A stretch of DNA of 64,000 nt from an uncultured Dehalococcoidia bacterium (GCA_913047625.1 CAJWUJ010000005.1:6239-70238); one strand, 5' to 3'; positions 4,179 through 61,658 are shown, counted from the first letter of the stretch. Translations and numbers: made by a program. The notes: generated by a model not told the origin, from the letters alone.

Positions 4179-4221
4179 TGGAGCTTACTCATAATAAAGA
4201 GCATCACCAAGGGAGAATGAA

Positions 4222-24844: not shown

Positions 24845-24860
24845 GAGTATTAGAATATAG

Positions 24861-26156: not shown

Positions 26157-26204
26157 GCCTTCACTGATATAAGGACATGATCATTTTCTCTATAAGGAGT
26201 ACTA

Positions 26205-27566: not shown

Positions 27567-27622
27567 AGTTGAATGAATGGAAATAGAAGAGATTTTAAAT
27601 ATAGGCGGACTAGGTTTTTAAT

Positions 27623-27883
27623 ATGACTTATCTGATATCTTGTCCAGGTTGTGGAGACAGAGGTGTCGATGATTATCGATACGGTGGGTCTGTTTTAAAA
27701 AGACCAGGGTATAACGATGATCCTGAACTGTGGGACTCTTATTTTTATTTGCGGGTCAATAGAGCAGGAATGGAGAAAGAATGGTGGTATCACAGAATGG
27801 GTTGTAAGCAATGGTTTATAGCAGAACGGGATAGTACCACTAATCAAGTACATGTTACTTATTGGCCAGGGGAAAATAAGTGA
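27623..27883 (+). CDS. mgdB: sarcosine oxidase delta-subunit family protein (N-methylglutamate dehydrogenase subunit)
   Basis: 86 aa. The CPGCGDRGVDDYRYGG pattern is typical of the SoxD family. Confidence 0.75.
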   Translation: MTYLISCPGCGDRGVDDYRYGGSVLKRPGYNDDPELWDSYFYLRVNRAGMEKEWWYHRMGCKQWFIAERDSTTNQVHVTYWPGENK

Positions 27884-27904
27884 TTACAAGAGGATGTTGT
27901 AGTT

Positions 27905-30826: not shown

Positions 30827-30836
30827 AGGAGTTGAT

Positions 30837-31532: not shown

Positions 31533-31544
31533 GGAGCGTAATTA

Positions 31545-33883: not shown

Positions 33884-33934
33884 TTGTTTCTCCTCTTCAT
33901 GGTTAAACTGTAAAGATTTTGGGAATCCTGTGTC

Positions 33935-41667: not shown

Positions 41668-42432
41668 CTAACCTAACGTTTTATCCAGGAAAGCAAATAC
41701 CTTTTTCCAACCGTCCACAGCTTGTGCCTGTCGGTAGACCGGACGGTCATAATAGAAGAAACCATGGCCCGCATCCGGGTACATGTGGAATTCATAATCT
41801 TTTCCGTGTGTTTTTAACTCCTGTTCATGGGCTGATACTTGTTCGGGACTAGGGCTTGCATCTTCTTGACCAAATAAACCTAGTAATGGACACGATAGGT
41901 CTTTTGTGTATTCAATCGGAGCTACAGGTTGTTTGGAATACCAGGGTTCTTGGCTATTGTTATTCTGAGTAATGCCACCACCCCAAAGATCAACAGCTGC
42001 GGAAATCCCCTGAAGGGTACAAGCAGCTAAGAATGCATGCCTTCCTCCGGAACAAGTACCGAAGACCCCAACTTTGCTATCCATATATGGTAGATTTTGC
42101 AAGAAATTATAACTTCCTTGTACATCTGCCATTGCTTGATCATCTGCAATTCCACCATCCGATCTGACTTTTGATGCTATATCTACAGGATCACCATGAC
42201 CTTCACGGTGGTAAAGATTAGGGCAGATCGCGAGGTATCCGTGATAGGCAAACTTTCGAGTTACTTCCTTGTACCATTCATCCCAGCCTGGTAAGTGATG
42301 GATTAATATCATGCTTCCACGTGGTTTAGTATGCAGTGGTCGGGCAAAATAAGCGAGAATATTATCGTTATTATAGCCGCTAATAGTGACAGTTTCTGCG
42401 ATCATAGATTCGTACATGTCGGTCGTATACAT
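41668..42432 (-). CDS. dienelactone hydrolase family protein
   Basis: 254 aa. Nucleophile elbow GTCSGG (Cys-type DLH), with HG...F near the C-terminus. Confidence 0.8.
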   Translation of the reverse strand: MYTTDMYESMIAETVTISGYNNDNILAYFARPLHTKPRGSMILIHHLPGWDEWYKEVTRKFAYHGYLAICPNLYHREGHGDPVDIASKVRSDGGIADDQAMADVQGSYNFLQNLPYMDSKVGVFGTCSGGRHAFLAACTLQGISAAVDLWGGGITQNNNSQEPWYSKQPVAPIEYTKDLSCPLLGLFGQEDASPSPEQVSAHEQELKTHGKDYEFHMYPDAGHGFFYYDRPVYRQAQAVDGWKKVFAFLDKTLG

Positions 42433-42524: not shown

Positions 42525-44549
42525 TTACTCCAGTGGTTGCACTATTATTCGGGATTTTTCTGTTAGTAGGAACAGATTGGCCATTTGCTTGTCGATTTGT
42601 AGCGTGTTGGCAGGCAGAGATGCCTTATGGATTATCCTCAGGACCACAGGATTACTGATTTCTGGAAGGTAGACCTGGACTAATGCCCTGTCTGTAAGAG
42701 TGGGATCGACAGTAGGGAGGTTTAAGTATCCAACTCTGACTCCATTTGAAAATTTCCTAACAGCTTTAATAGAAATATTGAGAGTAAGTTTCTTCTGGTC
42801 TAGAGTTGTTCTTAAAGCGTTGGTCTCCTCGAGGTCAATGGTAGGAGGTATGCCGTCTAGAACCACCCCGTACTTTGCCCGTGCGTGATCTAGTGAGATT
42901 TTGTCTTCCAGATAATCTTGTAATACGAGATTTGGTGATCTGAGTAGTGGATCTCCATATCCTCCACCTCCTTGGGTGGAGATTCGGATAATGTCGCTAC
43001 GTGACAATGAAAATCCGGTTGCTTTGCTATGAAATCTGGGTGAAATTAGACGGTTTTTCCCTGATCTGATCAATTCCCATTTTGCAGTTAAACCTGGATG
43101 ACCTTGTGATAGTCCTGTTGCTGGAACTATGGCATGATCCCCAAGAAAGGATATGGTGCCTGAAGAAGGGATTGTATACTCCCGAACAACCCCCATGCCT
43201 CCTCGAAATTGACCTGGCCCACCAGAGTTCTTCCTGAGTTCATATTGATTGAATCTAATTGGGAATAGGGACTCAAGTACTTCTACTGGCTGTATATTGA
43301 CGTTTCCTGATCGTAAGGATCGGACAAAGTCCAGACCATCTTTATCATACCTTCCTCCTCCGCCACCTCCTGGATAATCGTAGTAGATGTAGCGTTTGGG
43401 AACACCTTGTCTATTATCAATTCCGAATAGGTTTTGATGGTTTGCTCCAGCTCCTTCTCCAGCGCTGACCGTACGCGGTGCAACATTGCTTAACGCTTGC
43501 ATAACAAAAATAGATGCTTGACCAAGTTCAGCCATCCCTGCTGCTGGCGATGGCTCTGAGGCATTGAGCATTGAGTGCTTAGGAGCTGTAACACTAATAG
43601 GACGGAAGGAACCTGAATTGATTGATCCTTCCGGATCCAATGATGCCTTAACACCCATGAACGCGAAGCAATGGGCTAAAACTTCACTGACGTTGAGTGG
43701 TCCCTGGGATTCCTCTGCACTTCCGGAGTAGTCTACGTGAATTGTATCGTCCGCTATTTCAGTATTAACTCGGATCACCCTTTGTTGTTTGCTGACTCCG
43801 TCATTATCCAGATACCCTTCATAACAACTTGAACCGTCAGGGAGGCTTTGGATAATCATTCTCATACGACGTTCTGATAAATCCAAGATATCAGTCCAGT
43901 GTTGCATTGCACTTTCGGGTTCATAGCGAGTTAGTAATCCTTGTATTCTATCGATTGCAATTTTGCAGCTTGCCACCTGTGCGAATATGTCTCCTCTGGT
44001 TTGGTCAGGAACCCGTACATTTTTTAGAATAAACTGTAGTATTTCTTCGTTTAGAGTACCGTGAGATCCTATTTGCATAGGGGGGATTCTAAGCCCTTCT
44101 TGATATATTTCGCGGGCGTTTCCTGAGATACTGCCAGGAACCATTCCGCCAACATCGTACCAATGGGCTCTGTTAGCAGCGTATGCCACTAGCTGGCCTC
44201 GAAAAAAAACAGGCATAAAAATGAGTACGTCATTGAGGTGGGTGCCACCGTCATATGGGTCATTCCCAATAAAAATATCACCCTCCTCTATAGTTTCTTG
44301 AAACTTTGCGACTGTGAGATTTACCTGCCATATGATGGGGAAAATGTGGATTGGTATACTAGTTCCTACCGCTAATAAATCCCGTTCCTTAGTCAGGATA
44401 CCGCAAGAGAAGTCTCGTCCTGTGTACACTACCGCTGATCGAGCAGTTCTCAATGTAACCTCTGCCATTTCTCGAACAATTGATTCAAGTCGGTTACGAA
44501 TCACCTCTCTGCTAATTGGATCTGATACGGTGGAAGTACGATTATTCAT
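42525..44549 (-). CDS. hydantoinase B/oxoprolinase family protein (HyuB-1) with about 90-aa C-terminal extension
   Basis: Shares NDPYDGGTHLNDV, GGPGQFRGGMG and GGGGYGDP motifs with the other HyuB copies. 2-nt gap to hyuA. Confidence 0.88.
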   Translation of the reverse strand: MNNRTSTVSDPISREVIRNRLESIVREMAEVTLRTARSAVVYTGRDFSCGILTKERDLLAVGTSIPIHIFPIIWQVNLTVAKFQETIEEGDIFIGNDPYDGGTHLNDVLIFMPVFFRGQLVAYAANRAHWYDVGGMVPGSISGNAREIYQEGLRIPPMQIGSHGTLNEEILQFILKNVRVPDQTRGDIFAQVASCKIAIDRIQGLLTRYEPESAMQHWTDILDLSERRMRMIIQSLPDGSSCYEGYLDNDGVSKQQRVIRVNTEIADDTIHVDYSGSAEESQGPLNVSEVLAHCFAFMGVKASLDPEGSINSGSFRPISVTAPKHSMLNASEPSPAAGMAELGQASIFVMQALSNVAPRTVSAGEGAGANHQNLFGIDNRQGVPKRYIYYDYPGGGGGGRYDKDGLDFVRSLRSGNVNIQPVEVLESLFPIRFNQYELRKNSGGPGQFRGGMGVVREYTIPSSGTISFLGDHAIVPATGLSQGHPGLTAKWELIRSGKNRLISPRFHSKATGFSLSRSDIIRISTQGGGGYGDPLLRSPNLVLQDYLEDKISLDHARAKYGVVLDGIPPTIDLEETNALRTTLDQKKLTLNISIKAVRKFSNGVRVGYLNLPTVDPTLTDRALVQVYLPEISNPVVLRIIHKASLPANTLQIDKQMANLFLLTEKSRIIVQPLE

Positions 44550-44551
44550 GG

Positions 44552-46651
44552 CTAAGCCTTCTTCAAAATCAAATTACCTAAGTTATCTATGCTGACAGAA
44601 AAGTCTGGGGGTACAAGGGTAGTTGAGGTGTGTTCTTCTATTATTGCGGGTCCTTGTAAGTTGAAATCTCTGTCGAGTGTCTCTCGGATAAACACTGGTG
44701 TTTGGACTTCTTTCATTACTTCTCGAAAATAAACGAGTCTGGTTGTTCTACTGTTTTGAGATGCTCGATTTGCTTTTGGCTTATAGATTGGCGACTTAAA
44801 ACTAATGTGGGGAAGCAAGCCCGTTACCCTAACTCGTAAATTGACTATCTCGCATTCGTCCTCTGGGCACATGTAGGTGAAAAGCCGTTGATGTTCGTGA
44901 TGAAAGTTTTGAATGAGGTTTTCAACGTCTAGAGCTTGTGTATCTAAGGAACTCAAAGGAACGGTAAGGGAGTGAAATTGACCCACATATCTCATGTCGA
45001 CCATTTTTTCCACTAAGATTTCAGTAGTTTTTAACCCCGCATCAAGTAATCTCCCCGTAAGTTCGGATTCCATTTGATCAAAGGTTGATGTGATTTTAGT
45101 GAGGCTAGTTCCTGAACAAGCACTTGTACGTATGATATACGTGCTAACAGAATCGTACATTAAATTAGTGGAAAGAAGCCCTATAGCTGAGAAATTACCC
45201 GGGGCTAATGGGATTATAGCTTTTCTTAGATCCAGTTCTCGAACAACGCTTGCGGCTTGTAGAGGCCCAGCACCGCCAAAAGCTATGAGATCAAAATCTC
45301 TGGGATCTCTTCCTCGTGATATAGTTACTTCTCGGATTACATCTGCAGTTTTAGCATCCGCTATTTCTAGTACCCCTGAGGCAGCTTCTTCACACGAAAT
45401 AGCTAAAGCTGTTCCGATATCCCTTGAGAGTGCTCGTTTTGCCATATCTATGTCTAGTGGCATAGATCCTCCGAGTAAAGAATGCACTCTACCTAAAGCT
45501 GCATTAGCATCAGTGATAGTTGGATAATTGCCTCCTTGCCCGTAGCAAACCGGGCCAGGATTAGAACCGGCACTTTGTGGTCCAATATGTAATTGTTTCA
45601 TGGCATCAACTCTGACAATACTACCTCCACCCGCTCCGATCTCGACTATGTCTATCATCGGGACACGTAGAGGTAATCCACTCCCTGGCCTATTATTGGA
45701 TTTAAATAACTCGTATTCAGTAGTTGAAAGAGGGGCACCATTTTCTATGACAGAAGATTTAGTTGTTGTTCCGCCCATGTCTAGAGTAATGACGTTAGGA
45801 CTACCACAACTAGTGGCAAGTTGTGCTGCAGCAATAGCTCCTGCTGCAGGACCGGACTCCAGAATATGAATAGGTCGGTCGCTTGCTTCGGAGGTCGTCA
45901 TCGCTCCACCATTCGACTGCATGATGTGGATAGGGACTTTGAGCCCAGCCTTTTCTATCCGTTCAGATAATTTAGACAGATAGGTACTTATGGTAGGTTG
46001 AATATATGCATTGAGAGTAGTGGTTGAAGTTCTCTCATATTCTCCTATTTCTGGTACGAGTGTCGATGATAGAGTTAGGGAAATCTGAGGGAAATGTTTT
46101 TTTATCAGCGTTTGTATTATTTGTTCGTGTTCGTTGTTGGCATAGGAGTTCAGTAAGCATATGGCTATTGATTCTAGTTTTTGCTCTTGCAAGAAGGTGA
46201 TTAGACTGTCACTGCAACCTTGAGCATTAAGTGATTTTATGACGGCTCCATCGCTTGCTATTCTCTCATCGATACCGAACCGTTGTCTTCGTGGCACGAA
46301 GCTAGGTGGTTTGTCCATAAGGGGATCCAGAACGTGGGTTCTCGCGCCCCTTCTTAATTCAATGAAATCCCTGAAACCTTTCGTTGCTATAATTCCAGTT
46401 TTGGCTCCTTTGTGCTCCAGGAGGGTATTTATTCCTACAGTTGTCCCATGATTCAGGAATACGATCTCAGCTGGCTTAATGCCTGCAGATGCTAAAGTAG
46501 CTATGACTGCTTGGGCAGGATCTGCCCCGGTAGTCATGGTTTTTAGGTGAAGAAACTCATTGGTGGACTCATTGATACATGTTATATCAGTGAAGGTCCC
46601 CCCAACATCAATTCCTACGTAAAATCCTGTTTGCATAGTATTTAATCTCAA
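44552..46651 (-). CDS. hydantoinase A/oxoprolinase family protein (HyuA, ASKHA-fold ATPase component)
   Basis: 699 aa. GIDVGGTFTD N-terminal phosphate-1 motif and DMGGTTT phosphate-2 motif. Confidence 0.9.
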   Translation of the reverse strand: MRLNTMQTGFYVGIDVGGTFTDITCINESTNEFLHLKTMTTGADPAQAVIATLASAGIKPAEIVFLNHGTTVGINTLLEHKGAKTGIIATKGFRDFIELRRGARTHVLDPLMDKPPSFVPRRQRFGIDERIASDGAVIKSLNAQGCSDSLITFLQEQKLESIAICLLNSYANNEHEQIIQTLIKKHFPQISLTLSSTLVPEIGEYERTSTTTLNAYIQPTISTYLSKLSERIEKAGLKVPIHIMQSNGGAMTTSEASDRPIHILESGPAAGAIAAAQLATSCGSPNVITLDMGGTTTKSSVIENGAPLSTTEYELFKSNNRPGSGLPLRVPMIDIVEIGAGGGSIVRVDAMKQLHIGPQSAGSNPGPVCYGQGGNYPTITDANAALGRVHSLLGGSMPLDIDMAKRALSRDIGTALAISCEEAASGVLEIADAKTADVIREVTISRGRDPRDFDLIAFGGAGPLQAASVVRELDLRKAIIPLAPGNFSAIGLLSTNLMYDSVSTYIIRTSACSGTSLTKITSTFDQMESELTGRLLDAGLKTTEILVEKMVDMRYVGQFHSLTVPLSSLDTQALDVENLIQNFHHEHQRLFTYMCPEDECEIVNLRVRVTGLLPHISFKSPIYKPKANRASQNSRTTRLVYFREVMKEVQTPVFIRETLDRDFNLQGPAIIEEHTSTTLVPPDFSVSIDNLGNLILKKA

Positions 46652-46661
46652 CCTTGCAGTT

Positions 46662-47762
46662 TCATAAAATCTTGTACGGTTTTAGTCCTTGGGTATCTAT
46701 CTCTATTCCCAAGCCTGGATCGCTGGATGGTATTGCGTAACCTTCTTCTAATACAAGATGTTGTTTGAAACATTTGCCCCACATAGGATCTGTTGTGCTG
46801 TTGTAATATTCTAGAATCATTCCATTTGGTATGGCGGTCGCAAGGTGGATATGGAGTTCTTGCAGACCATGAGGTGAGATGGGCAGATTGTATGCTTGAG
46901 CAAGAGCAGCAACTTTCATAAATTCGGTAATGCCGCCAAGAACTTGAGCGTCTGGATTTAATATGGCAACACATTGGCCTTCTATAAGATCTCGGAAACC
47001 GTAACGAGTGAATTCGTTTTCTCCTGCTGCGATTGGTATCGAAGTAGCGTCAGCAACTAATTTGTGCCCTCGATAGTCATCCGGAGCTACGGGTTCTTCG
47101 AACCAGAATATATCGAATTCCTCTAGTCTTTTTGCAATCCTAATCGCTTCGGAATAAGTATACGCATTATTCGCATCAACCATAAGATTAACGTCTGGTC
47201 CAATAGCGTCTCTGGCAATTCGTACTCTTTCTATGTCTTGTGCAATAGAAGCGCCTCCTATTTTCATCTTAACTGATGTGACACCCAGTTCGACATAAGA
47301 TGACATTTCAGAAGACAAATCAGACAGTGTTTTTCCTTCTTCATAATAGCCACCCGCCAAATAAACTGGTATTGATTCTTGATATCCTCCAAGTAGTTTA
47401 TGCAGTGGCTGATTAGTAGCTTTGCCTCGAATATCCCATAGTGCAATATCGATTAGGCTGATAATTTTGGTTGATAGACCTCTGCGGCCTACAACTTTTG
47501 GTGCCCATAACTGAGCCCAAATCTTCTCTACATCGAATGGATTTTCGCCGATTAGAATTGGTTTGAATTCGTCAACAAACGCCTTGATGATACCAAACGG
47601 AATGATCGTTACACCTCCGGTAATGCCCAATCCGTAGACCCCACTGTCGGTATCAATAGTTATGACCGCTATGCCACCCTTTGGATAGATATACTTTCCA
47701 TTCCTCAGAGGCTTCGGTCTGTTCCATTCATAACCAGTTATGTTTATATCTGTAATTTTCAT
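46662..47762 (-). CDS. enolase-superfamily enzyme (mandelate racemase/muconate lactonizing family)
   Basis: 366 aa. KMKIGG, MVDANNAY, FEEP and AAGENE match the metal-ligand and general-base pattern. Confidence 0.85.
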   Translation of the reverse strand: MKITDINITGYEWNRPKPLRNGKYIYPKGGIAVITIDTDSGVYGLGITGGVTIIPFGIIKAFVDEFKPILIGENPFDVEKIWAQLWAPKVVGRRGLSTKIISLIDIALWDIRGKATNQPLHKLLGGYQESIPVYLAGGYYEEGKTLSDLSSEMSSYVELGVTSVKMKIGGASIAQDIERVRIARDAIGPDVNLMVDANNAYTYSEAIRIAKRLEEFDIFWFEEPVAPDDYRGHKLVADATSIPIAAGENEFTRYGFRDLIEGQCVAILNPDAQVLGGITEFMKVAALAQAYNLPISPHGLQELHIHLATAIPNGMILEYYNSTTDPMWGKCFKQHLVLEEGYAIPSSDPGLGIEIDTQGLKPYKIL

Positions 47763-50388: not shown

Positions 50389-51252
50389 TTAATGTGATAA
50401 ATAATCCTGCTGTTGTTGTCGATATTCTCCAGAATGCAAGATGGCATTTTCTAGTTCGGTCGCTATAGACTGCTCTTTTAAGGCGGAAGGATTTCCTCCA
50501 TCCTTTAGGTGTTTTAGAGAATCGTAGAGAGTTTTCATTGTCGTAAAAAATGGTTGATGGCCGGTTAGTACTACTTTGACATTGTTTTTCAAGAGAAATG
50601 AATTCTCTTTCAGTTTGTCACTGGCGCTGCCAAGAACAAGAGGAAGATGTGTGTTCTTCCGAATGCTTTCGATGTCGCCGTATTCCTTTGCTCCGACGAC
50701 CATAATGGCATCAACATTTAGGTTTGAGTAGGCACTCACCCTTTTGCTGGTATCATCTAGACTGGTGCTTGAGAGGCCGTTAGTCCGGGCAATGATTACT
50801 GTATTAGGATCTCTCTTTGCATCAATAGCAGCTCTTAATTTCCCTATCATTTCATCGCATGAGATCAAGGAAGTATCTGAACTTCCGTATTGTGGTGGAA
50901 GGGCTGCATCTTCTATTGTAATGGCAGCTGCGCCTGCTCGCTCAAGCTCTTGGATAGTCCTGCTGGCATTTAGCGCGTTACCGTACCCGTTATCGGCATC
51001 TACCATCAGGCTGATGTCGCTCACTCTGCAGATTCTCTCCACCTGATCGCTAAGTTCTGAAAGTGTAAGTACCATAATATCTGGAGCGGCTAATATAGCA
51101 GCGGATGCTACTGACCCGCCTAATATACCCAGATCAATTTTCAAATGGTCTGCTATGCGTGCAGAAATTGGATCAAAAACTGAAACTGGATATCCAATGT
51201 TTGGACCATTTAAATAGTTTCTGAACTGCTTCCGTTGTTTTGAAAAAGTCAT
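50389..51252 (-). CDS. isocitrate lyase/PEP mutase superfamily protein, divergent active-site loop
   Basis: VDADNGYGNA and IEDA motifs. I moved the start to ATG 51252 (GGAG upstream). The tracked ORF start at 51414 overlaps the upstream HyuB gene. Confidence 0.7.
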   Translation of the reverse strand: MTFSKQRKQFRNYLNGPNIGYPVSVFDPISARIADHLKIDLGILGGSVASAAILAAPDIMVLTLSELSDQVERICRVSDISLMVDADNGYGNALNASRTIQELERAGAAAITIEDAALPPQYGSSDTSLISCDEMIGKLRAAIDAKRDPNTVIIARTNGLSSTSLDDTSKRVSAYSNLNVDAIMVVGAKEYGDIESIRKNTHLPLVLGSASDKLKENSFLLKNNVKVVLTGHQPFFTTMKTLYDSLKHLKDGGNPSALKEQSIATELENAILHSGEYRQQQQDYLSH

Positions 51253-51286
51253 CCTTCTTCTCCTTTGATTCACTCTGTCTTTTTTA

Positions 51287-53017
51287 TTAGGCTTGGGATC
51301 GAAGTTTTGTTGTAGATTGCCAGTCGATAGAGGCGTCCTCACTTTTAAATACAACCCCATAAACACTCTTTGCACGAGAAAAGCTAATTTTCTCGTGCAA
51401 AATATCTTCAGCAACCTGATCAGGGTTTCTCTCTAATGGATTACCCCATCCTCCTCCTCCAGGCCAATGAACTTCAAGAGTATCTCCTGCACTAAATGTT
51501 TCCAAAAATTTTGTTGGTTTAACATGGTAGTAACCATTTTTTACTGTGGTAATTGAAGTTGGTTTGGATGAACCTCCTCCCCAAAGCCCATAAGGAGCTA
51601 CTTTGCTTCTATCAGATCGGACTTGGATCGTTGTTTCATCCACAGCACATTGATATTTGCGTTTCATTCCCATACCACCTCGATACTTCCCTGGCCCTTC
51701 AGAGTCTGGGATGAATTCGTATTCCAAGATTTTAACAGGGTGATCTATTTCAAGAATCTCTACAGGTGTGTTTGCTCCGTTTAACATTCCTGCAGAAACT
51801 GCATCGGGACCGTCACGATAAGAGAACGCTCCCATACCAGGCTCCACTGCGAAGTCGAGTAAGACCCACGGCTTCCATGGAACATGCTTTTTATTGTAGC
51901 CTGAAATTGCGACGCCAAGTTCTGCTCCTGCACATGCCGCATAGACTTTGTGAGGCAACATCTGGGCAAAAGCTCCAAATAAAGTATTTGCGATGCGAAC
52001 GAGCCCTAGAGTTCTTGCTGCAACAGGAGCAGGAAGCACTGGATTTACAAATGTTCCCTCTGGGGCATTGATGTTGACTGGTTTAAAATAGCCTGAAGTA
52101 TTTGGAATTTGAGGGCCTAGAAGGCACTTAACTACTGCATATACCACAGCATGGGTAGTTGCAAGTACAGGTTGGATTGCGCCGTTACATTGCGGAGAAG
52201 TCCCCGAAAAATCCACTGTTAATTCGTCTTTTTCTTTCGTGACTGTAGCAGTAATTCTAATGCTATCAGTGCTAAACCCATCATCGTCTATATAATCGCT
52301 AAATGACCATGTCCCGTTCGGCATTTGGCTGATTGCTTGTCGGGTTAGGTTTTCTGTGTATTCAATCAGTTGTTGAACCTGTTGTTCTAATGGCTCTATT
52401 CCGTATTGATTGATCAGCTCTAAATACTGTGTTTCACCGTACTCAAGACCTGCTATTTGCGCTTGTAGGTCTCCCATCACCATCTCTGGGACTCTTACTG
52501 CTTTTTCAAGCAACCGGTACACCGTTTCATTAGGGGTACCATCGACATATAGTTTTACGGGTGGAATCCTAATTCCCTCTTGGTAGATTTCTGAACTATC
52601 ACAGGCGTTTCCACCTGCTACTCTTCCCCCTATATCTGTATGGTGTGTCATAGCGCATAGGTATGCAGCTATGCGATTTTGGATGAATACTGGCTTGAAT
52701 AGGAAAATATCCGGAAGATGAGAGCCCCCTTCGTACGGATCGTTTAATATGAAGATGTCCCCTGGCCGAATGTTTTCTTGATAATAGTCTGTGCAAGCCT
52801 TCAGCGCAGGCATCATTCCTCCCAGATGAATCGGTAAACAAAACCCTTGTCCAATAAGCTCTCCAGTTGAACTCAGAACGCCTGTGGAATAATCTAAAGC
52901 TTGTCGAACAACTGTTGACCGAGAGGTTCTCACGACAGTGAGAGCCATACCATCTCCAATACTTTCGAGGGCATTTTTCAGTATTTCAAGTTTTATTGGA
53001 TCGGGTGATCTAACCAT
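51287..53017 (-). CDS. hydantoinase B/oxoprolinase family protein (HyuB-2), no adjacent HyuA
   Basis: NDPYEGGSHLPDIF, GPGKYRGGMG and GGGGWGNP. I chose the start at 53017 by N-terminal alignment to HyuB-4. It gives an 8-nt overlap with the aldolase gene. Confidence 0.85.
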   Translation of the reverse strand: MVRSPDPIKLEILKNALESIGDGMALTVVRTSRSTVVRQALDYSTGVLSSTGELIGQGFCLPIHLGGMMPALKACTDYYQENIRPGDIFILNDPYEGGSHLPDIFLFKPVFIQNRIAAYLCAMTHHTDIGGRVAGGNACDSSEIYQEGIRIPPVKLYVDGTPNETVYRLLEKAVRVPEMVMGDLQAQIAGLEYGETQYLELINQYGIEPLEQQVQQLIEYTENLTRQAISQMPNGTWSFSDYIDDDGFSTDSIRITATVTKEKDELTVDFSGTSPQCNGAIQPVLATTHAVVYAVVKCLLGPQIPNTSGYFKPVNINAPEGTFVNPVLPAPVAARTLGLVRIANTLFGAFAQMLPHKVYAACAGAELGVAISGYNKKHVPWKPWVLLDFAVEPGMGAFSYRDGPDAVSAGMLNGANTPVEILEIDHPVKILEYEFIPDSEGPGKYRGGMGMKRKYQCAVDETTIQVRSDRSKVAPYGLWGGGSSKPTSITTVKNGYYHVKPTKFLETFSAGDTLEVHWPGGGGWGNPLERNPDQVAEDILHEKISFSRAKSVYGVVFKSEDASIDWQSTTKLRSQA

Positions 53018-53786
53018 TGTTAGAAGGGTCCTTCGTTTTAAACGGTTCAAGGTATTTCAAAAAAGCTTGTTTCAATTGATCATGGGCGATTGTAACAGCA
53101 AAGTTGATATTGTCTTTGTCGAGTTGATCAATATTTCCATATCGAGTTGCTGCGCCTACGATTTTTCCTTGATTAGAAATCTTAGTTGCCATTTCACTTA
53201 CTATTTTGTCCATGGTTTCTTGGCCTGGCCAACCTAATTCTGCTGAAAGATTTCCTGCACCGATCCATACAATGTCAATGCCTGGGACTGCTGCTATTTG
53301 ATCTATGCAGTCGATACTTTCTTTGTTTTCACACAAGGCAATACAGAGTGTCTCTTGATTGGCAAATTGGCTATATTCCTTTGGAGTTCGGTGTAATCCG
53401 AAATCATTGGTCTGGATCCACCCGCATTGATCTCTGTTTCCATCAGGTACGAATTTACATGCTTCTACAAATCTCTGTGCATCCTCAGCAGAACGAACAC
53501 TAGGCATTACAATGCCCATGGCGCCCCTATCTAGAAGCCTCCTGCATCCGTAATAATCAGCTTCATGCCGTACAGCTGCTAGAGGAATTAAGTCACGAGC
53601 AAAAGCGGCTCGTATCATATGTTCTGCTTGGTCGTCACTCACAGGGCTGTACTCACAATTTATAATCATAAAATCAAAGCCTACCTCAGCAATTAATTCC
53701 GCGACGAATGGCGAAGAAAATGTGAGATCACACCCAATTACCCTGTTCCCATTGAGTAACTTCTCCTTTAGCTTATTCTTATGCAT
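53010..53786 (-). CDS. HpcH/HpaI-family aldolase (copy 2)
   Basis: 258 aa. Same family pattern as copy 1 (FMIINCEYSP, MPSVRSAEDA, CENKESIDCIDQIA). Confidence 0.78.
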   Translation of the reverse strand: MHKNKLKEKLLNGNRVIGCDLTFSSPFVAELIAEVGFDFMIINCEYSPVSDDQAEHMIRAAFARDLIPLAAVRHEADYYGCRRLLDRGAMGIVMPSVRSAEDAQRFVEACKFVPDGNRDQCGWIQTNDFGLHRTPKEYSQFANQETLCIALCENKESIDCIDQIAAVPGIDIVWIGAGNLSAELGWPGQETMDKIVSEMATKISNQGKIVGAATRYGNIDQLDKDNINFAVTIAHDQLKQAFLKYLEPFKTKDPSNNG

Positions 53787-53805
53787 TTGATCCCCAATCT
53801 ATAGT

Positions 53806-55479
53806 TTAGGTTTGTATTTTGTAGTCTTCAGTTGCTGAAGTTTCAGAAATTATTTCGTCTTTTAAATCTTGTACAACTGCAGTAGGGCTTCGGTCAGAAG
53901 GATTTCCAAAGCCTCCTCCGCCAGCAGTAATAAAATGTAAGAATTCTCCGTTCTTAACTTGTAGGAGTCCTTTGGAAGGAAGAGCCTGATCACTGTCGAT
54001 CCAGCCAAGTTGGTATCCAGTGCCTGATAAGCCTCCAGAGAACCCCTGAGCCTTGTAGTTAACTCTTTCAGACAGCATAGCCAACTCTATTTGGTGGTTA
54101 CCTGTCATTTCCAGAATAAGCTCTTGGCCGTACCCACCTCGATATTTACCTGGTCCACCCGAATCAGTGCGTATTTCCCGTTTCCATGCTATTAAAGGGG
54201 CATTAGATTCCATCATTTCTATCGGAGTACTCCCACTATTTGCAGGAAAGCCTGAGCAGGAAATACCGTCACCATGGGCGCTGGCTCCCATGCCTCCATG
54301 AATGCACAGAACAAAAACGAAGGGTTCTTCGTTGAGTCCTTTGCCGTAGAATGTGCACATGAGATCTGGGTTGCTTCCGCTGTCAGCTATTACTTTGGTA
54401 GGGATAATCGATTGGAGAGCAATTAATACTGATGAGCAAACGCATCTACCAACCAATTGACGGGCATTCACCGGCGCGGGGTAGGTAGCATTAAGGATAG
54501 ATCCTTCTGGGATTTTGATAGAAAAAGGTTTGTAGGATCCTTCGTTTTTATATGTTTGCGGGTCAAGAATACTTTTCAGGGTGTATGCAGTCCAAGCAGC
54601 TGTATAGGCAGGGACGCAGTTTATTCCTCCGGTATTGGTTTGAGGGGATGATCCGCCGTAATCCACGATAATGTGGTCGTCCATGACTTCTACAGTACAT
54701 TTAATATGTAGCGGAACGTTTTCAAAACCGTCCAAGTCGAGATAGGATTCGTATTTGCCGTTAGGAATCTTTTTTATAGCTAGACGCATTGATGCTTCTG
54801 CACGTGATTGCAGTTCTTTGCTTATTTCTTGTAAATCAGGTAAGTGATATTCATCCAGAAGTTCGATCAGGAGATCTGCACATTTTTCCAACGAAGCTAT
54901 TTGCGCAAAGAAATCGCCTGATACCTGTTTCGGTAGCCTGACATTTCCTTCGATGAAATCCATAAGTGATTTATTCAGAATGCCTTGGTTGAAAATCTTT
55001 GTGGGGGGAATCATTATGCCTTCTTCAAAAACAGAATTACAACTTGCTGACCAAATAGTCCCACTTATGTCTGCCCAGTGTGCTACATTTGCGGCAAAAC
55101 CGACAATCCTATTTTTTGAAAATACAGGCTTGATAATCACTACGTCAGGCTTGTGCCCTGTTCCTATCCATGGGTCATTGGTGATTACGACATCCCCTGG
55201 GAACCAAGAATCTAGTGGCATCAAGTCCAAGATTATCCTCATTGTTCTAGGAAGACATCCTGCGAATGATCCTGCAGTACCCTGATTTTCAGCTAGCGAA
55301 TCACCTTGTTTATCGAGTAGGACACAGGTATAGTCATTGCACTCTCTGATTAGTGTAGAAAATGCTGTCCTGGTCAGAGTGGCGGCTGACTGGTCGCAGA
55401 TAGCGATCAATCTGCTCCAGATAATTTCCAGTAACACAGGGTCTAAATCAGGATTGGTTTGATCTGTTTTTTGTTGCAT
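53806..55479 (-). CDS. hydantoinase B/oxoprolinase family protein (HyuB-3), no adjacent HyuA
   Basis: 557 aa with NDPWIGTGHKPDV, GGPGKYRGGYG and AGGGGFGNP. Confidence 0.85.
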   Translation of the reverse strand: MQQKTDQTNPDLDPVLLEIIWSRLIAICDQSAATLTRTAFSTLIRECNDYTCVLLDKQGDSLAENQGTAGSFAGCLPRTMRIILDLMPLDSWFPGDVVITNDPWIGTGHKPDVVIIKPVFSKNRIVGFAANVAHWADISGTIWSASCNSVFEEGIMIPPTKIFNQGILNKSLMDFIEGNVRLPKQVSGDFFAQIASLEKCADLLIELLDEYHLPDLQEISKELQSRAEASMRLAIKKIPNGKYESYLDLDGFENVPLHIKCTVEVMDDHIIVDYGGSSPQTNTGGINCVPAYTAAWTAYTLKSILDPQTYKNEGSYKPFSIKIPEGSILNATYPAPVNARQLVGRCVCSSVLIALQSIIPTKVIADSGSNPDLMCTFYGKGLNEEPFVFVLCIHGGMGASAHGDGISCSGFPANSGSTPIEMMESNAPLIAWKREIRTDSGGPGKYRGGYGQELILEMTGNHQIELAMLSERVNYKAQGFSGGLSGTGYQLGWIDSDQALPSKGLLQVKNGEFLHFITAGGGGFGNPSDRSPTAVVQDLKDEIISETSATEDYKIQT

Positions 55480-55597
55480 TGTTTTATATTAGTCGGATCG
55501 CAGAGTCGAGCAGAGAAAATCGTTTTATTTTCCTATGCCAGTTACAGATCGGTAATGTATCACTATTGACTGAAAGAAGCTAACAAAGGCCGTTGGA

Positions 55598-56887
55598 TTA
55601 TGAGGAGGTTTGCGGTTCTTCATAAACTAACTTGGGTCCTAATATCAAGCAAATAATTGCAATTGACATCCCTATTGCTGCTATGGCGGCAGGAATAGTA
55701 TATGCACCTGTTGCGTCGTGCATGGTACCCATGAACAATGGTCCAGCTGCCATGCCTAATAACATACAACTTGTTAGTGATCCTGAAATAGCTCCGATAT
55801 GCCTGATACCAAAGGCTGAAGCAGCTGCAATAGGAACCAATGTGCTAAATGCAGTAGCGGCGATTCCCAGTGGAATCGGGCATAACAGAAATACCCATTT
55901 TGGTATGTCAAGTGCACTGACTGTTAAAAGTAGCAGGGGTGCTATAGTGGCACCTGCAGTTGAAAATGAGAGGATACGCTTGATGGGGATCTTGTCGCTA
56001 AGATATCCGTAGGTAAATTTGGTAATTGCAGCAAGAAGCCCTATGAGACTTAATAATGTGGCAGCTGTGGTTGTGGAAAATCCAAGATCGAGAACAAAAG
56101 GTTGCACTTGGGAAAATGTTCCGTTGGACGAGAATAAGGCAGTAAAAAACACAAATACCACTACCCAAAACTTTGATGTTCGTACTGCCTCGCTTAAAGA
56201 AATTCCTGGCAAAGCAGCATAAACTTCAGAACGCGTGACTTTCTTGGAACTGTCGATTGTGTTTGTGGTGATTCCATCTGGTTCTAATCCCAGCTGATAG
56301 GGGTCTGATTTAATTACCAATAGGGTTAACGGAATAAGAGTAGACCAAATCAGAATTGCAAAAATCAGCATGGTTGACTGCCAATCCATCGATTGGATGA
56401 GAAATTCTGCTATCGGGCTCATAACAAATCCGCCAGCACCCATTCCTGTGTAAGTTATTCCGATAGCTAATCCTCTTCGCTTTTGAAACCACCTTGATAT
56501 TATTGCGTTTATGCTGATTCCACTAGATGCTGCCAGACCTACCCCGGCTGTTATATATCCTAAGAAAAAATGCCAAGGTTCTGTGACTTGGCTAAAGGAA
56601 AAGACTGCTGTTCCGATGATTAAAGCGCCTGCAAACATGATTAATTTGCCACCGTAAACATCAATCAGTTTTCCGATTACAGGTCCTGTAATCGCCATAG
56701 CTAGAATTCCGGCCGAATAAGTTGCGCTAAAAAGCCCTCTTGACCAACCAAGATCTGTATGAATTGGCTCGTAAAAAACAAATATTGCGAATATAACGAC
56801 GCCGTAAGTAATGAAAAATGAAAACCAGCACGAAGCTACAATGTACCACCCATAAAAAAAACGATCGGGTTTTACAGGTTCACTCAT
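55598..56887 (-). CDS. MFS transporter
   Basis: 429 aa with 12 predicted TM helices and the GKLIDVYGGK loop motif. Confidence 0.85.
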   Translation of the reverse strand: MSEPVKPDRFFYGWYIVASCWFSFFITYGVVIFAIFVFYEPIHTDLGWSRGLFSATYSAGILAMAITGPVIGKLIDVYGGKLIMFAGALIIGTAVFSFSQVTEPWHFFLGYITAGVGLAASSGISINAIISRWFQKRRGLAIGITYTGMGAGGFVMSPIAEFLIQSMDWQSTMLIFAILIWSTLIPLTLLVIKSDPYQLGLEPDGITTNTIDSSKKVTRSEVYAALPGISLSEAVRTSKFWVVVFVFFTALFSSNGTFSQVQPFVLDLGFSTTTAATLLSLIGLLAAITKFTYGYLSDKIPIKRILSFSTAGATIAPLLLLTVSALDIPKWVFLLCPIPLGIAATAFSTLVPIAAASAFGIRHIGAISGSLTSCMLLGMAAGPLFMGTMHDATGAYTIPAAIAAIGMSIAIICLILGPKLVYEEPQTSS

Positions 56888-58096: not shown

Positions 58097-59518
58097 TTAT
58101 ATATCAGGTAATAGGGTATGCCATGATGAGTGTTGTTGGAACAAATTGGCTAGTTGCATTACAGCTAAATCCTGAAAAGGAGCTCCAATAATTTGCAATC
58201 CAACAGGGAGGTTACTGGATGTGGTCCCACACGGGATTGAGATAGCTGGACAACCTCCGAGTGCCGCAAGGCCAGTAGGACCCCTTGTAAGTGTGTAACT
58301 GCTCAAAGCTTGTTTTTCTGTTGTAAGGTCTTCTAATGGAACGATCGTTGGGGCTGGTTGCAGTTGAGTAGGGCAAACAAGAAGTTGATAAGTGGTAAAA
58401 CATTCTTTGATTTGATCCAGCATTTCCTGTTTTATTTGAAGTAAATGCTGATAAACTCGTGACGGGATTAAATGAGCTGCCATCAACCTTCTCCGCATTA
58501 ACTTTCCGTAGGATTCGGGAGTTTGCTTCAGTGTATCGCTATGCACTGTCAATGCTTCACTTTCTGATATTGCGGCTACTACAGCCATCGCGTCTGTACT
58601 GGCTGGCAGCGAACATGGTTCGACAGTAAAACCTTCTTGTCTGAAAATATCTAACGAAGAGTAGATCGCAGTCCCAATTTCTTGGTCAATGTACGGTTCT
58701 TCCATCATTTCTGTAATAAGACCTATACGTTTAATTGTAGGTTTATCATCTACCGCGGAGAAGAAAGAAGGCAGTTTGGTGGAAACCGTTGACGGGTCCA
58801 ATGGATCATATCCAGTAATGCTATCCATGACTAACGCTACATCTTTAGCAGTTTTAGTAATCGGACCCGCGATATCAAAACTTGAAGAAATAGGAATACT
58901 TCCATGACGGCTTACTAGGCCCTGGGAAGGTCTAAGTCCTGTGGCTCCACAGTGTGATGCAGGAATTCTAACTGAGCCACCTGTATCCTCAGCTATGCTG
59001 AAAGCGCACAAGGATGCAGCAGTCGCAATACCGCTTCCGCTGCTTGAAAATCCTGGACTTCTGTTTGTGTCCCAAGGGTTTCTGGGTGTTCCGTAAGGAA
59101 AATAGTCCCCAGTTCCCATCCCGAATTCTGTCATGTTCAGTTTGCCTATGAGAATGGCCCCCGCACTATTCAAGCGTTCAATCACTGTGGCATTCGTATT
59201 GGGTGTATATGAGGAGAGAATTCTGGATCCTGCGGTTGTGCTAGCGTCACTAGTGAAGAATGCATCTTTTATTGCATAGGGTAGTCCGAATAGAGGTGGA
59301 TATCTATTACCTTGCAAAAGAGATCGTTCTAAATTGCGAGCAGTTTTTAAAGCAGAGTCAGGGATGGTGGTGATGAAGGCATTAAGGGTTGGATTTAATT
59401 GTTCTATTCTCTCTATATAGCTAGAAACTAGGTCTACTGGAGAAATTTGCTTCGTTTGAATCAGCGTTCTTAGTGTAGAAGCTGAAGATGTAAGGACTTC
59501 AGTCGGCAGTCGAACCAT
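58097..59518 (-). CDS. amidase-signature (GatA/AtzE-like) amidase
   Basis: 473 aa. Catalytic Lys in YAIKDAF, and the Ser-rich signature GFSSSGSGIATAA. Confidence 0.88.
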   Translation of the reverse strand: MVRLPTEVLTSSASTLRTLIQTKQISPVDLVSSYIERIEQLNPTLNAFITTIPDSALKTARNLERSLLQGNRYPPLFGLPYAIKDAFFTSDASTTAGSRILSSYTPNTNATVIERLNSAGAILIGKLNMTEFGMGTGDYFPYGTPRNPWDTNRSPGFSSSGSGIATAASLCAFSIAEDTGGSVRIPASHCGATGLRPSQGLVSRHGSIPISSSFDIAGPITKTAKDVALVMDSITGYDPLDPSTVSTKLPSFFSAVDDKPTIKRIGLITEMMEEPYIDQEIGTAIYSSLDIFRQEGFTVEPCSLPASTDAMAVVAAISESEALTVHSDTLKQTPESYGKLMRRRLMAAHLIPSRVYQHLLQIKQEMLDQIKECFTTYQLLVCPTQLQPAPTIVPLEDLTTEKQALSSYTLTRGPTGLAALGGCPAISIPCGTTSSNLPVGLQIIGAPFQDLAVMQLANLFQQHSSWHTLLPDI

Positions 59519-59693
59519 GCTGTGTTAGAACCTTTGCAATTAAATCTTTAGTGGCGTATTTGCTGGTCATATCTTGGATCAACTTAATGGATGTGTTTAA
59601 TCGTACACGAACTTCCACTAGATCCTCATCTGGAATATTAAGACCTATTGAGGATGCCAAACTCAGGATTTCTTTGTTGGTTATCTTTGGCAT
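59499..59693 (-). CDS. GatC-like small protein (AtzG-like amidase partner candidate)
   Basis: 64 aa counted from ATG 59693. ITNKEILSLASSIGLNIPDEDLVEVRVRLNTSIKLIQDM mirrors the GatC helix pattern. 20-nt overlap with the amidase start. Confidence 0.55.
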   Translation of the reverse strand: MPKITNKEILSLASSIGLNIPDEDLVEVRVRLNTSIKLIQDMTSKYATKDLIAKVLTQHGSTAD

Positions 59694-59729
59694 TATTCTT
59701 CCATTATGCAAGTAGCTGTATTGAATCGT

Positions 59730-61469
59730 TTACGCATTGGCGAGACTTCTGGATTGCTCGGTGGCATTGATGTCAATCGTGAGGTCTTCACGTATGACCA
59801 CTCCATAAGTGTCTTTTGCACGTTTCAGCGAGACTTTGCCTTCAATGACATCGGTTAGAACAGCCTCAGGATTACGCTCTATTGGGTTTCCCCAGCCACC
59901 ACCTCCTGGACACTCCAGTCGCCAACTGTCCCCTTGTTGTACAGGGATGATGACTTTGTTGGGTAGTTCTTCCGGGTTACTGTCTGGATTTAAAATCACC
60001 CGAGTCTTGGCTGATTCCTGTCCGCCATGGAGACCATACGGAGGATATTTGACTCGATCTGCTCTAATCTGTATTTGGGTGTCCGGTGACGTATTTCGGT
60101 ATTGGCGTACCATGCCTAAGCCACCTCTAGACTTTCCTGCTCCTTCAGTGTCTTGTAACAAAGCGTACTCTTCAACCATAATTGGTGTGTCAATTTCCAT
60201 GATTTCTGCAGGAATATTGCTTGAGTTATGGATGCATGGTTGTTGAGCATCTGCGCCATCTCGTTCTGCACTTCCTCCGGTAGCATTGGAGACAAGAGGA
60301 TCCATTTGGATCCACGCTTTCCAAGGACTGACTGTTTTATCATAGCCTGAAAACGCAGCAAAATATTCGTTCCCACCCCAACATGCCGGCATTTTTTGAG
60401 GTAGCATTAAACCAAAAGCACCAAAGACTGCCTGAGCTATTCTGTAAGCTCCTAATGCTCTAGCTGCTACTGGTGCAGGTAACAGAGGATTGGTAAATGT
60501 TCCTTCCGGAGATGTGACGGTAATGGGTCTAATATAGCCACCTGTATTTGGGATAGATGTGCCTAGTACAGATTTCACAACGGCATATGTCACTGACTGG
60601 GTAGTGCCAAAAACTGGTTGTATTGCCCCTTTGCATTGTGGGGATGTGCCATCAAAATCAATATAAAGTTGATCATCTTTCTTAGTTATGGTGGCTTGTA
60701 TCTTTATAGTCTCGTCGCTGATGCCGTCGTCATCTATATAATCACTAAACGTCCACGACCCCTCGGGTAATTCTCTGATAGCTGCTCGCGTTAGTTTTTC
60801 CGTATATTCAAGGAGATTATCTTGCGCTGCCAGCAGAGTTTCTGGGCCATGTCTTTCCGCGAGCTGTTGCCATTCGCGGGTTCCAATGTTGATGGCTGCG
60901 ACCTGTGCCATCAGATCACCAGTGACTTCATGAGGTATTCGGACAGCTTTCTCCAGTATTCTGAACATTGCGTCGTTGGGAACACCTCTGTCATATAGCT
61001 TGATGGGGGGAATACGTAACCCCTCCTGATAAATTTCCGTTGAGTCACAGGCGTTACCTCCTGCCACTCTGCCTCCTATATCACTATGGTGGGACATAGC
61101 ACAGGCAAAACCGAGCAATATGCCATTTTGAAAAACTGGTTTGAAGAGGAATATGTCGGGTAGATGGGTGCCACCTTCGTAGGGATCATTAATAATAAAG
61201 ATGTCCTCTGGATGAACTTGATTGTTATAGTGACTTAGGCACGCTTTTAAAGCAGGTCCCATGCATCCTAGATGTAAAGGAATACTGAACCCCTGTCCTA
61301 TGATTTCACCTTTTGCATCCAAAAGACCACAGGATAAGTCAAACCCCAGTCTTACGCAGGAAGAACGAGAAGTCCGAACCGCTATCAACATCATCGTGTC
61401 ACCTATGCCTGATAGGGCATGGTTGATTACCTCAAGGAGTATATTATCTGTGGATTTCGTGGCAGTCAT
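59730..61469 (-). CDS. hydantoinase B/oxoprolinase family protein (HyuB-4), no adjacent HyuA
   Basis: 579 aa. By eye it is roughly half identical to HyuB-2 over the full length (NDPYEGGTHLPDIFLFKPVF, GGGGWGNP). Confidence 0.88.
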   Translation of the reverse strand: MTATKSTDNILLEVINHALSGIGDTMMLIAVRTSRSSCVRLGFDLSCGLLDAKGEIIGQGFSIPLHLGCMGPALKACLSHYNNQVHPEDIFIINDPYEGGTHLPDIFLFKPVFQNGILLGFACAMSHHSDIGGRVAGGNACDSTEIYQEGLRIPPIKLYDRGVPNDAMFRILEKAVRIPHEVTGDLMAQVAAINIGTREWQQLAERHGPETLLAAQDNLLEYTEKLTRAAIRELPEGSWTFSDYIDDDGISDETIKIQATITKKDDQLYIDFDGTSPQCKGAIQPVFGTTQSVTYAVVKSVLGTSIPNTGGYIRPITVTSPEGTFTNPLLPAPVAARALGAYRIAQAVFGAFGLMLPQKMPACWGGNEYFAAFSGYDKTVSPWKAWIQMDPLVSNATGGSAERDGADAQQPCIHNSSNIPAEIMEIDTPIMVEEYALLQDTEGAGKSRGGLGMVRQYRNTSPDTQIQIRADRVKYPPYGLHGGQESAKTRVILNPDSNPEELPNKVIIPVQQGDSWRLECPGGGGWGNPIERNPEAVLTDVIEGKVSLKRAKDTYGVVIREDLTIDINATEQSRSLANA

Positions 61470-61658
61470 GCGAGTCAGAGTCCTATGGGAACTTCGGGAT
61501 CCTTAGTTTATGAACTTCTCAGCAAGATAACAGTCGTACTTTAACATTGTCAAATTAACAGTCTCTAATTTAATCTTGGCATTTAGTTATGGTATTTGAT
61601 TGACTTACGTTATACTGATTTTATGTGGTTCTGTTGAATCTTATCGAGGAGGTTACCT

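Follow-up and report, generated by a model that had tools for sequence, protein, structure and literature searches.

A GatC-like mini-protein and a GatA-derived amidase as a putative two-subunit module next to an orphan HyuB gene in an uncultured Dehalococcoidia bacterium

Organization of the Locus

The subject of this study is a compact locus of three genes on the minus strand of a 64,000-nucleotide (nt) stretch of DNA from an uncultured Dehalococcoidia bacterium, termed here the window. Between positions 58097 and 61469, a gene of the hydantoinase B/oxoprolinase family (HyuB-4) is followed by a very small open reading frame (ORF), hereafter the mini-protein, and by a gene for an amidase-signature enzyme. 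The latter two genes appear to form a two-subunit amidase that is AtzEG-like in architecture, independent of tRNA and not orthologous to AtzE/AtzG. The features of the locus are as follows, with protein lengths in amino acids (aa).

61524..61553, minus strand: best sigma-70-like site 5′ of HyuB-4 (TTGACA-18-TATCTT with TG), weak, a possible operon promoter
59730..61469, minus strand: HyuB-4, hydantoinase B/oxoprolinase-family protein, 579 aa (PF02538, E 1.6e-156, 522 bits), no adjoining HyuA
59694..59729, minus strand: spacer of 36 nt from the HyuB stop to the mini-protein ATG, with GGAAGA just 5′ of the ATG
59499..59693, minus strand: mini-protein, 64 aa, homologue of the N-terminal half of GatC, without the GatB-binding half
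59499..59518, minus strand: overlap of 20 nt between the mini-protein 3′ end and the amidase start, possible translational coupling
58097..59518, minus strand: amidase-signature enzyme, 473 aa (PF01425, E 6e-105, 352 bits), GatA-derived and neither GatA nor AtzE

The stop codon of HyuB-4 is a TAA that ends at 59730. The mini-protein starts with ATG at 59693 and stops with TGA at 59499, and the ATG of the amidase at 59518 lies inside the mini-protein ORF, the overlap reading ATGGTTCGACTGCCGACTGA. An alternative in-frame TTG at 59711 would make the mini-protein 70 aa long; the 64-aa form is likely the actual product, because all 5 close homologues and the 77 clusters of the family described below start at the ATG-equivalent position and measure 60–69 aa. 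The peptide KEILSLASSIGLNIPDEDLVEVRVRLNTSIKLIQDM, quoted in an earlier reading of this DNA (the first-pass annotation), was located in the mini-protein, and the layout given there (36-nt gap, ORF of 64–70 aa, 20-nt overlap) proved exact to the base. A search of the spacer at 59694..59729 for promoter-like or terminator-like sites detected none, and the promoter/terminator scan as a whole ran at chance level, with as many sigma-70-like sites in the region as expected from shuffled sequence. The mini-protein/amidase module is probably co-transcribed with HyuB-4.

Our Pfam scan took in 40 ORFs of the window, covering 38 of the 47 ORFs of at least 150 aa. Neither gatB nor a cyanuric acid hydrolase was found among these 40, so that the absence of both asserted in the first-pass annotation held for the ORFs scanned; the nine remaining ORFs of at least 150 aa measure 256 aa at most, where gatB would need ~480 aa and cyanuric acid hydrolase ~360 aa. 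Nor were atzD, atzH and atzF found in the window ORFs scanned.

The Mini-Protein and Its Relation to GatC

Judging from its conservation, the mini-protein ORF is a real protein-coding gene. Five near-identical homologues have the same length. An exhaustive search with a profile built from the six closest homologues gave 3 matches only, yet supplied a bridging protein of 65 aa (P0128, 39% identity, E 7e-4), and a wider profile that combined the homologues with ORFs lying 5′ of related amidases extended the family to 77 clusters of 60–69 aa, the majority of them from Chloroflexota (SAR202, Dehalococcoidia and others). A few of these are labeled “GatC” by the Joint Genome Institute (JGI), the remainder being unnamed or “hypothetical,” and one cluster, P0141, occurs in 327 blocks of the public collection. 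The ratio of nonsynonymous to synonymous substitution rates (dN/dS) against close relatives is 0.12–0.25, and the mini-protein is thus under purifying selection; its position and length upstream of amidases are kept down to 38–45% identity. A model computed with AlphaFold2 from the family alignment has a predicted local distance difference test score (pLDDT) of 85 and consists of three helices at residues 6–15, 22–45 and 48–60.

The family shows a consistent relation to GatC. A search of the PDB with the family profile retrieved the GatC chains 4wj3_C (E 5e-4), 2df4_C (1.5e-3) and 3h0l_C (0.47), all in register with GatC residues 1–52. For a profile-profile comparison we used 30 true full-length GatC sequences taken from 5′ of true GatA genes, and hhalign joined the two families at 96.7% (E 4e-10, 55 columns), with residues 1–57 of the mini-protein on residues 1–56 of GatC and the alignment stopping at GatC ~56. 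The hidden Markov model (HMM) of the family, run on the six-frame translation of the fetched loci, also recovered about 25 true GatC N-termini with E-values from 2e-7 to 5e-3. In a Foldseek search of the PDB, GatC chains stood at ranks 1, 3, 5, 6 and 8 with a template modeling (TM) score of 0.6 and root mean square deviations of 1.1–2.5 Å over 44–48 columns, and yeast GatF was also among the matches. From the profile-profile, PDB profile, HMM and fold matches, the mini-protein is therefore a homologue of the N-terminal half of GatC, and the GatC-like character that the first-pass annotation had read from its helical pattern is borne out by the profile searches and by the fold. The same Foldseek search also found a resemblance to a segment of the Rhodococcus sp. 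N-771 amidase (3a1i, 3a1k; 51 columns, TM 0.54), for which a similar helical hairpin at the N-terminal end of amidase-signature enzymes may account better than a fusion.

In GatC, the helices bundle with GatA, and the next loop runs across the GatA-GatB interface to a C-terminal strand paired with GatB; GatC is also required for the folding of GatA (PMC4027206). The N-terminal two-helix segment of GatC (TIGR00135/PF02686) is present in the mini-protein, and the extended loop and GatB-binding C-terminal strand that complete the ~95 aa of GatC are missing from its 64 aa. The curated GatC models leave the window mini-protein unmatched at E≤10 (Pfam) or E≤1 (NCBIfam), and the best family member on the GatC model, P0128, reaches 13.5 bits against a cut-off of 47.1.

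The relation to AtzG is a separate matter. PF13318 (formerly DUF4089) gave no match at E≤10 for the window ORF and three relatives, whereas AtzG from pADP-1 matches it with 36.2 bits (E 7.9e-9), and membership of the mini-protein in the AtzG/PF13318 family was ruled out. The hhalign comparison of the family with the single AtzG sequence gave a non-significant E of 0.069, in a test of low power where AtzG did not match the GatC profile either. The two comparisons that the first-pass annotation proposed for the small ORF thus came out differently, the one with GatC positive and the one with AtzG negative.

The Amidase Is Set Apart from GatA and AtzE

A PDB search with the amidase returned GatA as the best match (4.6e-67) and AtzE (6c62_A) as the seventh (1.6e-55); the whole fold is shared with GatA at ~30–35% identity. 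On the curated NCBIfam model of gatA (TIGR00132) it scores 321.6 bits against a cut-off of 481.1, and every tested member of its Chloroflexota clade likewise falls at 320–356 bits, below 481. The two AtzE models are also missed, with 271 vs. 425.75 bits (TIGR02715) and 286 vs. 461 bits (NF006631). By these curated thresholds the amidase is neither GatA nor AtzE. We had considered AtzE family membership as a candidate and rejected it on the two missed cut-offs and on the tree, where the enzyme and AtzE belong to different clades.

The catalytic Lys/cis-Ser/Ser triad is present in the window amidase as K84/S158/S182 and is invariant in all sequences aligned. The positions of glutamine recognition, which we take to be Tyr309, Arg358 and Asp425 in the numbering of Staphylococcus aureus, carry Tyr in 53/53, Arg in 50/53 and Asp in 53/53 true GatA sequences; the equivalent residues in yeast include R334 and D418 (PMC4027206). 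At the same three positions the window amidase has Val, Arg and Arg and AtzE has Ala, Asp and Gly, and the residues vary within the Chloroflexota clade. All non-GatA sequences, the window amidase among them, have a deletion of the GatA-specific loop that follows Tyr309. The pocket of the window amidase is rich in arginine, combining R343/R344 with the new Arg in place of Asp425.

We placed the enzyme in a neighbor-joining tree of 99 amidases, among them Chloroflexota homologues, AtzE and the enzymes of loci that carry a full-length GatC. A scan of genome contigs, in which the best among the matches listed reached 41%, supplied true GatC/GatA and further amidases as a panel. True GatA sequences formed a clade with 100/100 bootstrap support that includes Chloroflexota members (L036, L047, L058; L numbers designate sampled loci) and excludes the window amidase. 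The latter falls on a long branch in a separate clade of Chloroflexota and Rokuibacteriota (97/100), and AtzE lies in a third, loose group. The phylogenetic placement called for by the first-pass annotation thus gives a Chloroflexota clade apart from both GatA and AtzE. One of the loci in the GatA clade, L047, is itself from Dehalococcoidia and has a full-length gatC 5′ of a true gatA; the class therefore also possesses the genuine genes.

A Conserved Two-Gene Unit with Variable Neighbors

Of the seven distinct lineages of the clade with available DNA, six have a mini-protein directly 5′ of the amidase. The pair is present in the window, L001, L002, L092, L093, L095, L003, L096, L006, L087–L089, L097, L098, L099 and L004, where L003 and L096 have an amidase 45% identical to that of the window and L087–L089 represent an abundant SAR202 version; the only sampled locus lacking the mini-protein is L005. 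The two genes overlap by 20 nt in L001 and L002, by 8 nt in L003, L087 and L096 and by 4 nt in L098, and are separated by 1 nt in L097; L090 and L091, where the pair is interrupted by a 337-nt gap, are exceptions to this pattern. The conserved unit is the mini-protein plus the amidase, and the neighbors vary: housekeeping genes in L003, L096 and L087, a second amidase in L091, and an Opp-type (peptide) ATP-binding cassette transporter in L098.

In L004 (positions 4329–7398), from the Candidatus Rokuibacteriota metagenome-assembled genome contig QHSQ01000170.1, a gene for a 476-aa dihydropyrimidinase/D-hydantoinase-like protein stands directly 5′ of the pair. The mini-protein there is ~62 aa and ends at 5971, overlapping an amidase gene of the same clade that starts at 5968, and the cyclic amidohydrolase scores 316 bits on TIGR02033, below the cut-off of 393. 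In L004 the module is thus combined independently with a ring-opening amidohydrolase non-homologous to HyuB. In L097 (1164–5039), on a Chloroflexota-type contig, a gamma-glutamyltranspeptidase (GGT) gene is found 5′ of the pair, in an arrangement that mirrors ggt-atzG-atzE-atzH of Enterobacteriaceae (PMC6219798). In L087 (8682–8990), a 102-aa carboxymuconolactone-decarboxylase (CMD) gene lies directly 3′ of the amidase, resembling the position of AtzH after AtzE, a decarboxylating step after deamidation.

Small ORFs of 57–70 aa at or overlapping the amidase start were also noticed with many non-GatA amidases of Proteobacteria, Acidobacteriota and others (L015, L018, L024, L027, L029, L032, L035, L037, L052, L053, L059, L062, L068, L079), those of Reyranella, Stellaceae and Burkholderiaceae (L018, L035, L037, L053, L059) forming a clearly conserved group. 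Whether compared with GatC or with the window family, they show no more than borderline resemblance (63%, 20 columns), and none belongs to PF13318. In this branch of the amidase-signature family, small partners may be frequent.

HyuB-4 and the Other HyuB Genes of the Window

The best NCBIfam model for HyuB-4 is caprolactamase beta, with 316 bits vs. a cut-off of 1000, and its PDB matches include N-methylhydantoinase (7hk5, 9e-86) and CapB (6yra_B, 4e-65). The metal ligands of CapB are D41/H99/D102/H124 (PMC8453981). Residues D44/H102/D105/H127 of HyuB-4 are invariant across the four HyuBs of the window and, from an alignment offset of +3, would correspond to this Asp-His-Asp-His site. In the characterized enzymes, the HyuB-type subunit hydrolyzes or carboxylates an intermediate that has been ATP-activated in the HyuA-type subunit and passed on through a tunnel (PMC8453981). 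No HyuA-like gene lies beside HyuB-4 in the window, L001 or L002. The sole HyuA of the window is located 13 kb away at 44552..46651 and paired with its own HyuB-1, but could be supplied in trans to the three orphan HyuBs.

HyuB is found 5′ of the pair only in the narrow lineage of the window (the window, L001, L002, L092, L093 and L095), in which the amidases are at least 69% identical. The first-pass annotation saw the amidase and its partner as recruited to a HyuB; this describes the narrow lineage, and elsewhere other members of the pair occur without HyuB. Likewise the three-gene unit is conserved in L001, L002, L092, L093 and L095, and beyond these only the mini-protein and the amidase are kept together.

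Besides HyuB-4, two further HyuB genes without HyuA are found in an operon-like run on the minus strand at 50389–56887, where several genes overlap:

56887-55598, minus strand: major facilitator superfamily (MFS) transporter
55479-53806, minus strand: orphan HyuB-3
53786-53010, minus strand: HpcH/HpaI aldolase
53050-51287, minus strand: orphan HyuB-2, 53% identical to HyuB-4
51414-50389, minus strand: protein of the phosphoenolpyruvate (PEP)-mutase/isocitrate-lyase family

The HyuA-less HyuB genes of this run pair with C-C lyases, and the three orphans of the window thus adjoin different enzymes: an HpcH aldolase, a PEP-mutase-like protein and the amidase described here. The only canonical pair, HyuA (699 aa) with HyuB (674 aa), occupies 42525–46651 on the minus strand and is flanked by a mandelate-racemase-family gene (46662–47762) and a dienelactone hydrolase gene (41668–42432). 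A literature search combining SAR202 and hydantoinase found nothing relevant.

A Possible Function of the Module and Its Alternatives

Taking these results together, we consider it fairly probable that the module is a heteromeric amide hydrolase derived from GatC-GatA which, in this lineage, plausibly acts after HyuB. The ancestry of the two genes would lie in the GatC-GatA portion of the tRNA-dependent amidotransferase. Of GatC, the mini-protein keeps only the two N-terminal helices, those that bundle with GatA in GatCAB; the extended loop and the C-terminal strand, through which GatA is tied to GatB, are lost. The role of the mini-protein, in analogy to the GatC/GatA and AtzG/AtzE pairs, may be that of a non-catalytic structural subunit for folding or solubility of the amidase, and the 20-nt overlap could couple translation and yield matched amounts of both proteins. 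Since the Lys/cis-Ser/Ser machinery is kept, the amidase should hydrolyze an amide and release ammonia. With Tyr309 replaced by Val and Asp425 by Arg, it has lost the recognition of an alpha-amino acid seen in GatA, and the Arg-rich pocket suggests a small anionic amide or ureide as the substrate. Such an enzyme may deamidate or decarbamoylate the compound formed when a lactam or hydantoin-type ring is opened, a step to which HyuB-4 would be linked. The dihydropyrimidinase-like gene of L004 and the GGT gene of L097 are independent parallels in favor of a catabolic role that follows hydrolysis or ring opening.

Several results weigh against this proposal. Used alone, the 64-aa sequence matched nothing in Pfam, NCBIfam or the PDB, and the GatC matches in Foldseek have E-values of 0.16–2, not significant for so small a query. 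In the sub-family of the window, the conserved C-terminal (V/I)(E/D)P(V/L)P motif (VEPxP), which corresponds to the “VEPT” segment of GatC at the start of the extended loop, is replaced by DLIAKVLTQ (59499–59560), predicted with lower confidence as the third helix. On the side of HyuB, the loci of the narrow lineage also share msrA and an SRAP gene in synteny, and the gene order of HyuB is therefore not evidence of functional coupling. A metagenome scan with HyuB-4 gave near-identical loci and one 44% relative (L094) that has no downstream amidase, and the paralogue HyuB-2 is followed by the PEP-mutase-family gene instead. Known HyuB subunits, moreover, depend on an ATP-activated substrate delivered by HyuA (PMC8453981). 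The association with HyuB is the weakest part of our finding.

Three other accounts of the mini-protein and amidase genes can be set against a derived amidase. That the small ORF has no function as a protein, being for example a leader or a chance ORF, would fit its size and the lack of a curated family match for the window sequence, yet 77 clusters keep its length and motifs, dN/dS stays below 0.25, the predicted fold is confident and the homology to GatC is significant, so that we regard this as highly unlikely. The pair could also be the genuine GatC-GatA of a tRNA-dependent amidotransferase, in which GatC would be unusually short and gatB would lie elsewhere. In its favor, the best single-family matches are GatA and GatC, JGI names some family members accordingly and some members sit among housekeeping genes. 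This reading conflicts with the scores of the whole clade on TIGR00132 (320–356 bits vs. 481), with the change of Tyr309/Asp425 to Val/Arg and the deletion of the GatA-specific loop, with a 100/100 true-GatA clade that has Chloroflexota members and leaves out the window amidase, and with a mini-protein devoid of the half that binds GatB (PMC4027206); we find it extremely improbable. The first-pass annotation, which took the enzyme as GatA-like and not as a subunit of the tRNA amidotransferase, is upheld by the lost residues and loop, the TIGR00132 score and the tree, and its own reservation that the pair might simply be GatCA does not apply in a class with a separate gatC-gatA (L047). Its precedent of AtzE-AtzG stands as an architecture and fails as a family membership, the cut-offs of AtzE being missed and PF13318 unmatched. 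An AtzG-AtzE orthologue, the 1-carboxybiuret hydrolase of cyanuric acid catabolism, would likewise have a partner of 60–70 aa directly 5′ of a GatA-like amidase, and AtzE is the seventh best PDB match; against it stand both AtzE cut-offs, the PF13318 result (matched by AtzG at 7.9e-9), the different clade in the tree and the absence of atzD, atzH and atzF from the window ORFs scanned, and its probability is close to nil.

As to HyuB-4, two further explanations compete with a module that plausibly acts after it. The adjacency may be incidental, a free-standing amidase module having landed by an orphan HyuB in a gene-dense catabolic island. The window is indeed crowded with paralogous catabolic genes and the module has unrelated neighbors in other loci (L003, L096, L087, L098, L091), but the spacing of 36 nt without detectable terminator or promoter and the ring-opening amidohydrolase at the equivalent position in L004 speak against chance; we see here a substantial possibility, though somewhat the less likely one. 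A full three-gene pathway, where HyuB-4 alone opens a nitrogen-rich ring and the mini-protein/amidase complex deamidates the product, would agree with three genes on one strand with 36-nt and overlapping junctions, with a trio kept in L001, L002, L092, L093 and L095, with the intact metal tetrad of HyuB (PMC8453981) and with the link of the module to a non-homologous cyclic amidohydrolase in L004. All loci with the trio are, however, closely related and share a wider synteny, HyuB is missing from the six other distinct contexts sampled for the pair, each of the three orphan HyuBs stands beside a different class of enzyme, and HyuB-type subunits use phospho- or carboxy-activated intermediates channeled from HyuA (PMC8453981), of which none adjoins. 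This pathway is unlikely in our view, if with a real chance of being right. The first-pass annotation let a HyuA-less HyuB take the place of the ring-opening enzyme, in conflict with the known HyuA-dependent mechanism (PMC8453981), and for HyuB-4 alone to do so is speculative. Ring opening followed by deamidation is no more than plausible, a sequence of steps kept alive by the 36-nt spacing, the lack of a detectable terminator and the parallel of L004.

The preferred reading, a GatC-GatA-derived amide hydrolase, can be taken further. Its widest form would be an undescribed family of two-subunit amidases, widespread in Chloroflexota with the abundant marine SAR202 and in Rokuibacteriota, that act as deamidase or decarbamoylase after a hydantoinase-type ring opening, the pair perhaps docking on a HyuA-less HyuB like GatCA on GatB and passing on ammonia or an unstable intermediate. 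To this form as a whole we give very little probability.

Wider Implications and Other Genes of the Window

AtzEG was a previously unexpected relic of GatCA in Proteobacteria. The present module suggests that a truncated GatC, kept together with a neofunctionalized GatA, is conserved and widespread in Chloroflexota, as a module invisible to Pfam and NCBIfam and often mislabeled as GatA or GatC. In practical terms, it offers a clean annotation rule and names a predicted co-expression partner that these amidases would require. It also gives a hint of the ancestral state of a large branch of the amidase-signature family. The link to HyuB, if true, matters for the catabolism of recalcitrant organic nitrogen in SAR202-like bacteria.

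Elsewhere in the window, a cluster on the plus strand at 23250–32759 includes a glutamine amidotransferase (GATase)-like gene, a protein with a glutamate-synthase domain, a gene like glutamine synthetase (GS; 26205–27566), a 973-aa sarcosine-oxidase-alpha-like protein and a DAO-family oxidase, and resembles a cluster for N-methylglutamate (methylamine) or sarcosine utilization. GS and glutamate synthase (GOGAT) are found at 2847–10186. Three luciferase-like monooxygenase paralogues and two tandem Ala_racemase_N/D-Ser-dehydratase-like paralogues (13270–14292, 35139–36137, 36312–37340; 32780–35044) fit the paralogue-rich catabolic genomes of SAR202-type Chloroflexota.

Comparison with Known Systems

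In the searchable literature, descriptions are confined to AtzEG and the atzG-atzE-atzH clusters of Proteobacteria. Compared with GatCAB (S. aureus 2DF4, Pseudomonas aeruginosa 4WJ3), the mini-protein is in register with GatC 1–56 and the amidase has the full fold and the catalytic triad of GatA at ~30–35% identity. The system differs in that the mini-protein has no counterpart of the C-terminal half of GatC, the part lying across the GatA-GatB interface and pairing with GatB, and in that the amidase lacks Tyr309, Asp425 and the GatA-specific loop and belongs to a separate clade, with gatB not found in the window.

With the HyuA/HyuB lactamases (CapAB 6YRA, N-methylhydantoinase 7HK5, 5-oxoprolinase), HyuB-4 has in common the full domain and, by alignment, the Asp-His-Asp-His site, and differs by the missing HyuA next to it and by its 316 bits against the caprolactamase-beta cut-off of 1000. 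In classical hydantoin utilization, the ring is opened first and an amide or ureide hydrolase acts next. Unlike in the hydantoin/creatinine pathways, the next hydrolase here is an amidase-signature enzyme with a GatC-like subunit instead of a classical N-carbamoylase.

The closest comparison is with AtzG-AtzE of Pseudomonas sp. ADP (6C62), where AtzE is insoluble without AtzG and AtzEG is derived from GatCA (PMC6219798). The window amidase falls in another clade and below the AtzE cut-offs, and its mini-protein is outside PF13318 and, unlike AtzG, still recognizable as GatC by sequence; the window ORFs scanned hold no atzD, atzH or atzF, the host belongs to Chloroflexota/SAR202 instead of Proteobacteria, and HyuB is the upstream gene. 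In both systems, a non-catalytic partner of 60–70 aa (by prediction in the present case) stands directly 5′ of a GatA-derived amidase that has lost the glutamine-recognition residues of GatA, neither occurs with GatB or a tRNA context, and both modules are found in varied catabolic contexts of nitrogen compounds, including a GGT gene upstream (L097; PMC6219798).

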